Source: Escherichia phage T5. Taken from it: a DNA stretch of 64,000 nt. The stretch lies in sequence record AY692264.1; one strand, 5' to 3'. Each line of letters opens with the position of its first letter. Position 1 is the stretch's first letter. Under the pieces are notes generated by a model. It ran no database searches and was not told where the DNA came from. It was given only the letters and a program-made list of their open reading frames with translations. The translations under genes were made by a program, and so were the position numbers. Shown here piece after piece: positions 3,473 through 7,505 of this stretch.

Positions 3473-3670
3473 TTAATTTAAAGGCATAAGGCTAGAACTA
3501 ACACCACAAGCAACGGCGGCAATAAAACAAATCAGACCTAAACGCTTTGCTAACTTAGATTTACGTTTAAAATAATACGAATCTAAATCATTTTGAAAAT
3601 AAGCGAACAATAACGAGGCCGCCATAATAAACAAGCCTAGAATGAGGGATTCAGTAGGGTAAAAGATCAT
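3473..3670 (-). CDS. small membrane protein
   Basis: 65 aa ORF with two hydrophobic segments. Confidence 0.35.
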   Translation of the reverse strand: MIFYPTESLILGLFIMAASLLFAYFQNDLDSYYFKRKSKLAKRLGLICFIAAVACGVSSSLMPLN

Positions 3671-3726
3671 TTTAAAACTCCAGTCAAAGGGAAATTATAG
3701 TGGGGAATATTCCCCACTAATTAAAT

Positions 3727-4134
3727 TTATTCGCCTGCGGCTTGTTTTACTTCATCGGCAACGCCTAACAGTTGCGCCACGGCGTCCAGCGTTTCCAATT
3801 TTGCACTTTCCAGTGATGCCAGATCGTCAGCGTCTTTGATAATACCGGAATCGATGGCATGTTTTGCAATCACACGCACGTAGTGCGCTTTGCGGATAGA
3901 ACTGCCGCCGCCAACCTTGCGAGGTTTATCGCTTTTCTGATACGCTTTCGCGCTGGTCAATTTTGAGCGAACAGACACGGGAGAAGCCGCGCCAACTGCT
4001 TTTGCAATCTCTTTTAAACCGTCGCTATTTGCGAAATCTAAACCGTTTTCATTAATTAACTGCTGGTACATGGAAACAGCTTTCTGAGTGTTTTCTTCAT
4101 TCCAAGCGAATTTTGCGGTTTTAGCGTTAGTCAT
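3727..4134 (-). CDS. A2: A2 protein (DNA-transfer associated, pre-early)
   Basis: 135 aa ORF immediately upstream of A1 in transcription order, matching the T5 A2-A1 arrangement and size. Confidence 0.65.
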   Translation of the reverse strand: MTNAKTAKFAWNEENTQKAVSMYQQLINENGLDFANSDGLKEIAKAVGAASPVSVRSKLTSAKAYQKSDKPRKVGGGSSIRKAHYVRVIAKHAIDSGIIKDADDLASLESAKLETLDAVAQLLGVADEVKQAAGE

Positions 4135-4170
4135 GATGTAACTCCTGTTTATTTAATTTAAGGGATAAGA

Positions 4171-4218
4171 TTAACATAATGTTAATCGTTATATCCCCCG
4201 AACTACTAGGGGATATAA
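4171..4218. promoter_or_regulatory. palindrome TTAACATAATGTTAA plus 10-bp inverted repeat TTATATCCCC/GGGGATATAA
   Basis: seen directly between A2 start and upstream ORF stop; candidate operator or terminator hairpin. Confidence 0.4.
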
Positions 4219-4229
4219 AAGTAACACTA

Positions 4230-4481
4230 TTACGCTACGGCTTCCCATTTTTCGTTACGCTGGGCAACCTTTACAACGTCGCCGGATTTAACCCGAACGT
4301 TGTAAACAGTTTTTCCGTTGTTACTCCGTTCCGTTTCAGCGTATACCGCATCAATTACATCAAACGGCATAAGCGCCGCGCCTTTAATGCGTTCGGTTTT
4401 TCCGGTTACCTCATCCGTTTTAGTAACGAAAGGGATAAAAACGGATTGACCAATTTTTGGCGCAGTAGTAACGTTTTGCAT
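4230..4481 (-). CDS. hypothetical pre-early protein
   Basis: 83 aa ORF. Confidence 0.4.
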   Translation of the reverse strand: MQNVTTAPKIGQSVFIPFVTKTDEVTGKTERIKGAALMPFDVIDAVYAETERSNNGKTVYNVRVKSGDVVKVAQRNEKWEAVA

Positions 4482-4683
4482 AATATAAACTCCAGTTTAT
4501 TAAGGGGGATTGTTCCGCATTACCTGCTGTAAAAGTAGTGGCAGGTAATAAGCAACAATCCGCTCGCCAATATAATCAATTTAAAGAACTCCACTCAGGC
4601 CGCTATATCCCAGTTAGGGGGCGGGACACATTATGGTAAGTGCCGACCGTCATATTTTATCAAGTTATCGCTCTCATCGAACT

Positions 4684-4974
4684 GGGTACATCTTAAAGCC
4701 TATCGGCTAGGGTGTCAAACTATTTTTTGCAGTTTTTTATGATTTTCTTTCAAGTCAATCATAATGTTTCGCCAGATCATTTCCAGACCTTGCTGGCGGC
4801 CTTTCTTGTACTGCCTAAATCGATATTTTACCGATTGCTGGGCTATTGTCAACAATTTTTTAGTAGTACCATCTAATTTTTTAGCTGGTTTACCAGTGAT
4901 CAATAAAGTTTGTTTCATATCGTCGATTCCTTATAATATATAAGTTTACCGCCGATAGACTTTAAGATGTACCC
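4684..4974. repeat. 24-bp inverted repeats (23/24 match) flanking a 243-bp segment
   Basis: GGGTACATCTTAAAGCCTATCGGC at 4684-4707 and its near-exact reverse complement at 4951-4974. Confidence 0.6.
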
Positions 4975-5410
4975 AATTTTTAAAGAGCGTGGCGGTAAAC
5001 TTCCCGCCGTGTAGTTCGTCATTGCCGCCCTACGAGATAAATAATAGGGGATACCCAAAAATGGCGCAACCTTATTTTTGTAAAGAAACGTAAAGAAGGC
5101 AACACGTCCGGCGCTCACCTAAGTTTAAAGGAAACGGGCGCGCGAATACCATAAAACCTAGCAGGTTGGCAAGTAATTTTTTCCTTTATATTTGCCTTGC
5201 CCTAGTTGACAAATCTTAGAAAGCTCGTGGTGACGATAAACGGGTTATCCCCTTATGATGGGATGCCTGAAAAATTTACCGCGTCAGAAAGCGTTTTAGG
5301 CGGCTTATTTTCGATTTAACAAATATTTAACAAAAGCAAAATTGAAAAATAGTTGGAAAAGATATTGACTTTTAAAAATCAAGACTAAACGAGTTATTTT
5401 ATAAAATTAA

Positions 5411-5929
5411 TTAATTGACAATTCCAAATTCAGCTTTTTTAGTTTCTACCCATAATAATAACTCTTGTAAATCATAACCTGATTTACTAACACTTTTGTT
5501 ACTAGTAGGATCTTTAACTATAGCGCGCAAATAGTTTCTTCCGTTATTATCAACTCTAGAACCATTATAATAGATATGCTTAGGCAACTTATTAGCACGC
5601 TTATAATCTTTCTTGTTATTCATATTCTGCTTATGGTCTACTAAGCGAAGATTATTAATGTTATTATTAGCACGGTTACGATCATTATGATCGATTGTTA
5701 GATTGCTATCAATCTCACCATTAAATAATACCCATATTATTCTATGCACTGCGTATTGTTCGCCTGCTAACTTTACTCGATAGTAACCTGTGTTACTATA
5801 ATGCCCTGCAATATCACCCACCTTACTATTACCTTTCTGTACTTTCCATCTTAGAAATGATGGGGATGTTTCATCATAATAAAAGTTATCATTAGCAAGC
5901 GAATAATCTATATCTTTAAATAGACCCAT
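5411..5929 (-). CDS. HNH homing endonuclease
   Basis: 172 aa; HNH-type motif ...DHNDRNRANNNINNLRLVDHKQN... Confidence 0.65.
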   Translation of the reverse strand: MGLFKDIDYSLANDNFYYDETSPSFLRWKVQKGNSKVGDIAGHYSNTGYYRVKLAGEQYAVHRIIWVLFNGEIDSNLTIDHNDRNRANNNINNLRLVDHKQNMNNKKDYKRANKLPKHIYYNGSRVDNNGRNYLRAIVKDPTSNKSVSKSGYDLQELLLWVETKKAEFGIVN

Positions 5930-6186
5930 TGTTATAGTTTCCTTATGTTATTAATTTAATCTCTATTATATTATATCAAAACCATTAGCAAACTACCTAA
6001 TGAGTTTTTCAGGTTTAATTAGCAGACTCATAATCACTTTAAAATCCTATTAGCCAACTAACTATATTTTGTTATATAATAACTGCATAAATTAGTTAGT
6101 GAGAAACACTATCATTTAAGTTATCCACAGCCTTATACATTTTGTAAATTAACTTGACACAATAGGAAGGCTTTATAGCACTTTTA

Positions 6187-6228
6187 CACAGACTTATCCA
6201 CAGGTTATTCCACTGTATAAATATACAG
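6187..6228. repeat. DnaA-box-containing repeat, left copy (inverted relative to 9411-9460)
   Basis: TTATCCACA boxes at 6121-6129 and 6195-6203; 16-mer CTGTATAAATATACAG at 6213-6228 identical to 9411-9426. Confidence 0.6.
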
Positions 6229-6443
6229 GGTAAATGGAAAACATATTATAATGATGCCCAAAATAAGCGGCCTAAAACGCTTTCTAACGAGCAAAACGCT
6301 ATAGGGTAATATTAAAGTAAAGCCTCAACGCGTCGCCCTGGTGGCTTCGCCGTGTTTTGCTCTTTACTATACCGCTGCGCGGTTAGCATAAAACTAGGCG
6401 CTAGGCAAGGAAAATAAAAAGGTAAAATAATATTTGCCTATGC

Positions 6444-6473
6444 TAGAAAATTACCTTTATCATTCACTCACCG
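6444..6473 (+). promoter_or_regulatory. candidate sigma70 promoter for plus-strand module
   Basis: TTGCCT, 18-bp spacer, TATCAT upstream of ORF 6495. Confidence 0.3.
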
Positions 6474-6494
6474 ATTAACGAGGGAGGCCAACAA

Positions 6495-7505
6495 ATGCGG
6501 CTATATAAACCAGATAACGCAACCGTCTTAAAGGGCGCCTTGCGCAACCTGCTGGATGGTAGCAGGACAACCAGCATTAAACATTTTATTAACAAGGCTG
6601 AAACTATTCACCAAAACTTTTTTAATGATTATGATGCCTATGATATGGATAGTTTTCTACCCCTATATAAGCAGGGGGCAACGATTATCTTATATAATCG
6701 TGATTGCCATATCTTTACGGGCAGGGGAGCGGGGCCGGATACTGATTTTATTGTTGCGCAGGGTAATAATATCGTTGCGTATCATAGCAATTCAGGCCGT
6801 CAATCATTTAATATAAATAATTTTGAGCTTGTTGGGCTTGAATTAATAAACGGACTTTCTAGCCTTGAGGGATTTTTAGATGTTATCTGGAAGTATTTAT
6901 CTGCTGGATGGCATAGACCTGATAGTGATGGATCTCAATATACGGCTGTAATGGCTTTTGATGGCGACGGTAATTTTTTATTACCATCGGAATTATATCC
7001 GTATGTATATAATGAGCTAGTACAAGAAGCGGGTTTTATTTTCTGGAAAGATGAGAATCAGATCATTGACAACACGGAAAAACATGCTGTAAATTCTAAC
7101 ACTCAAAGCGTTAACACTCAAATCACTGAAAACAAAGGAAAAAATGCCATGACCAAGATCGCTAATATCGTTGCCGCTAATAAATCCGCCGTTGTAAATG
7201 CTGCAAAACTGGAAGCGGGCAAAATTGCATTAACTCAAATCACGAAAGTAGCGGCTAAAAAAGCACCATTTATGATTAAAGGTTATATTGATACGCCTAT
7301 TGGTCGGGTAGTTATTGCTAACCTGCTGAGCGTAGCGGTTGACCAGTACGCCCCTAGCAACCAAAAGGCGAAAGCGGTAGCGGGTGCAGCTATGGAAGCG
7401 GCTATGCTAGAAATGGTGCAAAGTTTTAACATCGCTGAAATGATTGATGAAATGGTGAAAGGTATTGATATTTCTACTTTTACCGTTAACACCGAAAGCG
7501 AGTAA
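6495..7505 (+). CDS. hypothetical protein
   Basis: 336 aa ORF with GGAGG RBS; C-terminal Ala/Lys-rich region. Confidence 0.55.
   Translation: MRLYKPDNATVLKGALRNLLDGSRTTSIKHFINKAETIHQNFFNDYDAYDMDSFLPLYKQGATIILYNRDCHIFTGRGAGPDTDFIVAQGNNIVAYHSNSGRQSFNINNFELVGLELINGLSSLEGFLDVIWKYLSAGWHRPDSDGSQYTAVMAFDGDGNFLLPSELYPYVYNELVQEAGFIFWKDENQIIDNTEKHAVNSNTQSVNTQITENKGKNAMTKIANIVAANKSAVVNAAKLEAGKIALTQITKVAAKKAPFMIKGYIDTPIGRVVIANLLSVAVDQYAPSNQKAKAVAGAAMEAAMLEMVQSFNIAEMIDEMVKGIDISTFTVNTESE

Follow-up and report, generated by a model that had tools for sequence, protein, structure and literature searches.

Genes and promoters of the locus

The window analysed here is a stretch of 64,000 nucleotides from the left end of Escherichia phage T5 (AY692264.1). 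Region 4400-5500 of this window is 100% identical to the T5 genome (AY543070 / NC_005859) at the same coordinates, and the inverted repeat that is the subject of this analysis therefore sits in the left terminal repeat, within the first-step-transfer, or pre-early, DNA. AY543070 annotates T5.007 (4230-4481), T5.008 or hdi (4715-4918, minus strand), T5.009 (4915-5022, minus strand) and the HNH endonuclease gene hegG (5411-5929), which lies outside the arms of the repeat, together with the promoters P-D/E20 and P-H22 (the latter at 4799-4873). T5.007 belongs to DUF7177, and the neighbours T5.007, A2 and the HNH endonuclease include no recombinase. No Rfam family was matched in 3500-7000 at E <= 1.

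The repeat has been recorded before. AY587007 (Wang et al. 2005) lists an inverted repeat A at 4682-4706 and A' at 4950-4974 (IRA/IRA'), with putative pre-early promoters T5P1 (4663-4737, minus) and T5P2 (4795-4880, minus), and a 2020 preprint by Davison (bioRxiv 10.1101/866236) names 4682-5310 "Repeat Region 1". Both describe the feature studied here and term the region untranslated, with no assigned function; both are silent on arm A being the core of P-D/E20, on hdi lying between the arms, and on the covariation of the arms. The pre-early region governs host takeover and the two-step DNA injection, and its promoters, including P-D/E20, are classic strong promoters that have been reused in expression vectors. 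The conserved repeats around them have gone without an assigned role for twenty years.

The original prediction treated 4500-5400 as a GC-richer noncoding island whose only open reading frames were weak. Both of the 67-aa minus-strand frames that it listed (4715-4918 and 4915-5118) exist. The first, lying in the segment between the arms, is the real and characterised gene hdi (T5.008), whose product matches Pfam DUF7416 (E = 1e-37) and has 61 database relatives. The frame is intact in 23 of 23 distinct relatives, so the protein-level conservation that had been proposed as a check is present. Variable codons in hdi are mostly synonymous (synonymous-only changes occur for example at L5, L6, G9, P11, L15, A26, S29, G40, L45, R50 and L56), and this bias, in what is ordinary coding sequence, overturns the gene-free framing of the 243-bp segment. 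GC content across 4500-5400 is 0.35-0.44 and does not exceed that of A1/A2 on the left (0.45-0.50); only in comparison with the AT-rich HNH gene to the right (0.25-0.34) is the interval GC-richer. The absence of convincing genes in the surroundings holds in that 4482-4714 and 4919-5410 contain no conserved ORF, but these intervals do carry promoters and conserved leaders.

Mahata et al. 2023 (PMC10714956) reported that T5.008 blocks the growth of E. coli and named it hdi, for a host division inhibitor that targets FtsZ. In that study resistant mutants mapped to ftsZ (G191, F268), Hdi destabilised Z rings during infection, and a T5 hdi deletion mutant was outcompeted. The cloning primers match exactly 4916-4935(-) and 4713-4732(+), which identifies the protein as the product of the ORF between the arms; the paper covers the protein only, and not the repeat or the hdi transcript.

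The second frame, at 4915-5118, in which T5.009 is annotated, behaves differently. The T5.009 product ranges from 16 to 56 aa and is frameshifted after residue 7 in several relatives, its start motif is missing in 12 loci, and neither T5.009 nor the longer ORF has a Pfam match. The block 5098-4919 combines near-invariant nucleotides with indels of 1 and 2 nt. Judged by this pattern of sequence variation, the second ORF is not conserved as a protein, and the block is a conserved noncoding leader. The untranslated leader of hdi is placed at 4919-5034 (minus) and holds a GC hairpin (GGCGG at 5008-5004 with CCGCC at 4995-4991), a box, GCTCTTTAAAAA, at 4988-4977, and arm A'.

Two strong leftward promoters overlap hdi. 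The core of P-H22 (4825-4852, minus; TTGACA-16-TAAAAT) falls in hdi codons 23-32 and is the best sigma-70 match in the region, with hexamers that are invariant or nearly so in the hdi codon comparison. The core of P-D/E20 (4690-4718, minus; TTGACA-17-TAAGAT) is the second-best match; its -35 overlaps the hdi stop codon, and it drives T5.007-A2-A1. A 2026 preprint places the experimentally characterised P-H22 fully, and P-D/E20 partially, over hdi, and reports that fragments carrying P-H22 and P-D/E20 could not be cloned. AY587007 (as T5P1, 4663-4737) and the 2026 preprint agree in putting P-D/E20 over the end of hdi. A published P-D/E20 sequence was not found in accessible papers, so the position used here was taken from AY587007, from the match to the hexamers and from the preprint. 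The AY543070 feature "promoter P-D/E 20" at 4338-4664 excludes the TTGACA/TAAGAT hexamers at 4718-4690.

The arms in T5 and its relatives

A repeat search of the sequence returned arms at 4669-4707 and 4951-4989, each 39 nt long, 82% complementary and 243 nt apart, and the 23/24 core that had been predicted at 4684-4707 and 4951-4974 is there. The 25-nt repeat core has exactly two occurrences in the 64-kb window, where 0 are expected. When the first 12 kb were shuffled 30 times and scored on a like-for-like measure, the highest score was 16; the repeat itself scores 19. Arm A (IRA; 4669-4707, minus) is the 3' arm on hdi-sense RNA. On the minus strand it reads GCCGATAGGCTT-TAAGAT-GTACCCAGTTCGATGAGAGCG, in which the final 12 spacer nucleotides of P-D/E20 are followed by its -10 (TAAGAT) and by about 21 nt that contain its start region. 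Arm A' (IRA'; 4951-4989, minus) is the 5' arm and lies in the untranslated leader; its sequence is CGCTCTTTAAAAATTGGGTACATCTTAAAGTCTATCGGC, and it ends 32 nt before the hdi ATG. At its other end hdi lies 7 nt from arm A.

No intrinsic terminator was predicted at either arm, and A' has no correctly spaced -35 on either strand. A rightward promoter at A' was considered and rejected: the plus strand of A' carries TAAGAT, but only TTTACC lies 12 nt upstream and there is no TG extension, so that it does not form a usable promoter, and the same is seen in all relatives.

To place the arms in a wider context, at least 45 hdi-bearing loci were gathered from IMG/VR, GenBank phages and metagenomes. The IMG/VR and metagenome scan added 34, 5 and 14 loci, and most of the diversity came from GenBank phage records. 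Both arms are found at the same locus in every hdi-bearing relative examined, with A always in the promoter core and A' always in the leader, and their complementarity is kept across Tequintavirus, Epseptimavirus, Sugarlandvirus and Myunavirus. The gap between the arms ranges from 238 to 438 nt, with values of 243, 244, 245, 248-250 and 259-261 nt, and of 398, 404, 410 and 438 nt where an extra small ORF lies between A' and hdi. Because the spacing and the intervening genes vary, complementarity itself is the conserved property.

The changes within the arms match one another. GGGUAC/GUACCC, as in T5, has become GGGAAC/GUUCCC in 15 sequences, the form carried by Epseptimaviruses, one C-G pair has become U.G in 13 sequences and U-A in 2, and in TrudiGerster a -10 of TAATAT is matched by ATATTA in A'. 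Three loci (L038-L040) extend the near-perfect duplex to 41-43 bp. In Klebsiella phage AmPh_EK80 (Sugarlandvirus) the arms are largely different in sequence but still pair, as GGGATTCTATAAAAAGCGTTATCGGC and GCCGATAACGCTTTATTATAGAATCTC; the latter lies inside TTGACA-17-TATTAT, and two ORFs, one of them Hdi-like, occupy the space between the arms. Pectobacterium phage My1 belongs to another subfamily, Mccorquodalevirinae. It carries two modules in tandem, and in each of them a leader segment complements the spacer and -10 of the next promoter (25/25 and 15/16); an Hdi-like ORF lies in the second module.

Gene content between the arms shows some variation of its own. The extra small ORF between A' and hdi was seen in L009, L024 and L041 (in all three an insert of about 155 nt) and in L044, L045 and L046, and is of two unrelated types, one starting MQTIYNDHPATHDTIEKIEQW and the other containing ITVEQAE. 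The Salmonella phages GSW6 and S124 (L045, L053) encode a divergent Hdi nearer to the Klebsiella form (QQGLPM.WDNMM); their hdi genes are without the internal P-H22 hexamers, and both arms are retained.

Pairing statistics were computed on an alignment of 39 distinct sequences over a 24-pair core helix. Standard pairs are formed in 99.9% of the 936 cells, and the core spans at least 24 bp in 39 of 39 sequences; controls in which one arm was slid against the other are only 31-45% paired. Changes on both sides occur at 5 core pairs; 0 of 500 shuffles attain these values, and RNAalifold, unprompted, predicts the same long-range helix. Where only one side has changed, the result is a G.U pair on the hdi-sense strand at 12 sites (96 cells), versus 3 sites (17 cells) on the opposite strand, and within the core alone at 7 sense sites (45 cells) versus 1 antisense site (1 cell). 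As a caution, the strand asymmetry depends on about 15 variable sites in related sequences (binomial p of ~0.02). Strand-biased C>T mutation was tried as its cause and rejected: outside the helix, C/T and A/G polymorphisms are equal per base (27/109 and 40/161), and a mutational bias of this kind therefore fails to account for it. Folding gives -124.5 kcal/mol (z = -8.7) for the T5 sense strand, whose minimum free energy structure includes the long-range helix as a 28-bp core plus a 7-bp distal segment (35 bp), and -112.2 kcal/mol (z = -5.4) for the antisense strand. Arm A is also constrained as a promoter, and covariation alone does not separate RNA pairing from gene conversion or from a DNA-binding factor shared by the two arms.

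A candidate RNA helix and its alternatives

The original prediction offered a long-range RNA stem, a miniature inverted-repeat element and a protein recognition site as possible identities of the structure. The comparative data, namely the RNAalifold result, the pair counts, the compensatory changes and the G.U pairs on the sense strand, favour the first. We tentatively prefer to read the arms as the two halves of a long-range RNA helix, formed on leftward (hdi-sense) read-through transcripts and functional as RNA, and we regard this as a serious possibility held short of conviction.

For both arms to be on one transcript, initiation must occur upstream of 4989, and the two characterised promoters start downstream of A'. 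Since P-H22 starts between the arms and P-D/E20 inside arm A, their transcripts cannot form the helix. The only candidate source predicted for a transcript carrying A', hdi and A together is a further promoter-like site, here called P-up (5041-5069, minus; TTGCGC-17-TATTAT), with its -35 at 5069-5064, its -10 at 5046-5041 and a start expected at ~5034. In 16 diverse loci from four genera the hexamers and their spacing are kept and the spacer sequence has diverged, in the context TCTTTAC-N3-TCTTTACAAAAATAAGG-TTGCGC-(16-17 nt, variable)-TATTAT-TTATCTCGTAGGRCGGCAA. Kept hexamers and spacing around a variable spacer are a promoter-like signature, and P-up is proposed as a predicted promoter on this basis. 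Its -35 is weak (3/6 match); it was not flagged by the promoter scan of the region and is unannotated in AY543070 and AY587007. P-up and, ahead of it, a duplicated TCTTTAC motif and an A-tract (together 5041-5098, minus) are kept from T5 to the Klebsiella and Pectobacterium phages.

A natural deletion bears on the activity of P-up. In Escherichia coli phage Wa28 (LC788710.1; L047) the P-up leader is joined to codon 5 of T5.007, and A', hdi, P-H22, P-D/E20, A and the T5.007 start are gone. Within the 1.4 kb that precede A2, a gene described in the literature as essential, P-up is then the sole promoter-like site, which suggests leftward firing from P-up and transcripts that continue into A2. 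Wa28 has lost the hdi module with both its arms, and the module as a unit is therefore dispensable.

The alternative that survives best places recognition at the level of DNA. A' would then be a second copy of the P-D/E20 core, bound by the promoter's own factor (RNA polymerase, an A1-RNAP complex that dampens the pre-early promoters, or A2), and its role would be that of a decoy or an auxiliary operator, perhaps with hdi and P-H22 placed in a DNA loop at the time of pre-early shutoff. Auxiliary-operator and looping systems are known from lac O1/O3 and gal OE/OI, which likewise have two inverted copies a few hundred bp apart, one over the -10 and start of a promoter, and a promoter between them. 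The T5 arms differ from these in that they come without a known cognate protein, with unconserved phasing, with diverged but self-complementary sequence and with an RNA-like tolerance of mismatches. The operator-like overlap of one arm with the -10 and start of a strong promoter, and the conservation of both arms, would be expected of such sites, and candidate factors are on record: the literature describes A1 as needed for pre-early shutoff and as interacting with RNA polymerase, and A2 as binding DNA. Among relatives, however, helical phasing is not kept, since the spacing differs by 1-2 bp in some cases, by about half a turn of the helix in others and by over 150 bp in yet others. Arm sequences diverge strongly from genus to genus and from one My1 module to the other, each matching its own partner. 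Mismatches that are almost only G.U on one strand are a property of RNA and not of duplex DNA, and A' is without a usable -35. The protein recognition site of the original prediction is thus weakened by variable spacing and strand asymmetry; it stays as a rival that we consider unlikely.

It is less probable still, in our estimate, that the repeat has no function of its own and is an old duplication of the promoter core, kept alike by gene conversion or by hitch-hiking with constrained neighbours. Gene conversion does produce concerted change of both arms, T5-like phages recombine frequently, and the entire module can go missing, as in Wa28. But gene conversion predicts no strand-specific G.U bias, and a short repeat whose arms lie about 250 bp apart has persisted across two subfamilies while its flanks have fallen to ~75% identity or become unrecognisable. 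A' is also as conserved as the promoter arm, though it lies in no conserved ORF.

A mobile cassette or MITE, with hdi carried on a small element between terminal inverted repeats, is very improbable. In its favour, one small gene is closely bracketed by the repeats, at distances of 7 nt and 32 nt, and the content between them differs among relatives, with extra ORFs in some. Against this, there are only two arm copies in 64 kb, the flanks (GAACT/AATTT for the 24-nt arms, GTTAT/TGGCG for the 39-nt arms) form no direct repeat, no transposase lies nearby and the HNH gene is outside the arms, and the essential A2/A1 genes are driven by a promoter whose core is arm A. In the comparison with related genomes that had been suggested, for presence or absence of the segment, no relative examined has an empty site with a single arm, and the loss in Wa28 is a larger deletion that also takes out the promoters and the start of T5.007. 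With two copies only, no target-site duplication, no empty/filled polymorphism and an arm that is itself a promoter core, the miniature element of the original prediction can be set aside. An invertible switch, in which recombination between the arms would flip P-H22 and the P-D/E20 -35 and redirect transcription rightward, fits the geometry (the arms enclose P-H22 entirely as well as the P-D/E20 -35, and the -10 is in an arm) but is just as hard to credit, with 0 inverted arrangements among 424 phage records matching an inversion-junction query (the best coverage, 81%, being the native arrangement) and no recombinase gene in the region.

Returning to the RNA helix, a transcript would start upstream of A', most likely at the predicted P-up at ~5041-5069, carry A' in its leader and continue through hdi and across P-D/E20, which is arm A. 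If A' and A pair, hdi would lie in a loop closed by a helix of 28 bp, which the distal segment lengthens to 35 bp in T5 and which reaches 41-43 bp in some relatives. Host RNase III needs roughly 20 bp and accepts duplexes of 28-43 bp as substrates; cleavage could make the helix a processing or insulation site. The cut would split the mRNA for toxic Hdi from the T5.007-A2-A1 message and set the stability or dosage of each. As the 3' arm ends near the P-D/E20 transcript start, cleavage would detach the Hdi message close to the 5' end that the T5.007-A2-A1 message has of its own. P-up firing, read-through, helix formation in vivo and RNase III cutting are steps that we infer, and RNase III cleavage in particular should be given less weight than a functional RNA helix as such.

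RNase III processing helices flank 16S and 23S rRNA in rrn operons, and RNase III sites occur in the early region of phage T7. The proposed T5 helix resembles these in being a long near-perfect duplex, on a polycistronic transcript, made from sequences on either side of a unit; the T7 sites are local hairpins, whereas the T5 arms enclose loops of 250-440 nt and cleavage in T5 is the proposed step. We know of no described precedent for a processing helix whose 3' arm is at the same time the core of the following promoter, as it would be in T5.

A broader and more speculative possibility is that the pre-early operons of Demerecviridae are built from self-insulating promoter modules. Each leader would carry the antisense of the next promoter's spacer, -10 and start, so that read-through RNA folds into a duplex ending at that promoter and is cut or otherwise handled to give a defined mRNA whichever promoter was used. 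T5 would have one such module (hdi) and My1 two in tandem.

The repeat, the hdi gene and the two strong promoters were already known. We did not find in the accessible literature the identity of arm A with a promoter core, the covariation of the arms across four genera with G.U tolerance on the sense strand, the tandem version of the design in My1, or the conserved promoter-like site and leader ahead of the module. A processing helix, if real, would explain how a toxic FtsZ inhibitor is handled separately from the essential A2 and A1 genes on the same strand, would name the transcript that encodes Hdi, and would illustrate how a promoter and an RNA structural element can share sequence. Should the RNA-helix reading fail, what is left is a repeat that had been annotated before, placed around a gene that had been characterised before. 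Since A' overlaps neither a promoter nor a conserved ORF, mutations in it would leave both intact, which opens the idea to a direct test.

Leader hairpins and a second repeat

Several smaller structures lie in the leaders on either side of hdi. In the hdi leader (4977-5008, minus) the box GCTCTTTAA(A/C)AA comes after a GC-rich hairpin, an arrangement also seen in L034, L042, L044-L046, L051, L052 and L053. The hairpin shows compensatory changes, for example GGCGG/CCGCC versus GGTAAGG/CCTTACC. In Epseptimavirus and Sugarlandvirus (2 copies) and in My1 (4 copies) the box lies downstream of each pre-early promoter; T5 has 1 direct copy and a degenerate inverted copy in arm A. A local 12-bp hairpin (4942-4953 / 4991-5002) was considered as a conserved alternative structure and rejected, as it is altered on both strands without compensation in L018 and is missing in L038, L040, L044 and the Klebsiella phages.

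The 5' leader of T5.007 (4482-4689, minus) is conserved and is transcribed from P-D/E20. Just ahead of the ribosome-binding site it contains a 21-bp imperfect hairpin (4507-4527 / 4541-4561), in which C>T and G>A changes compensate one another in L015 and L019, and this suggests that 4507-4561 is a conserved RNA structure. A second inverted repeat, IRB/IRB' (5275-5311 / 6260-6296; 37 nt, 86% complementary), flanks the HNH gene hegG, which is absent from most relatives; according to Davison, the hegG insertion splits one ancestral repeat region.
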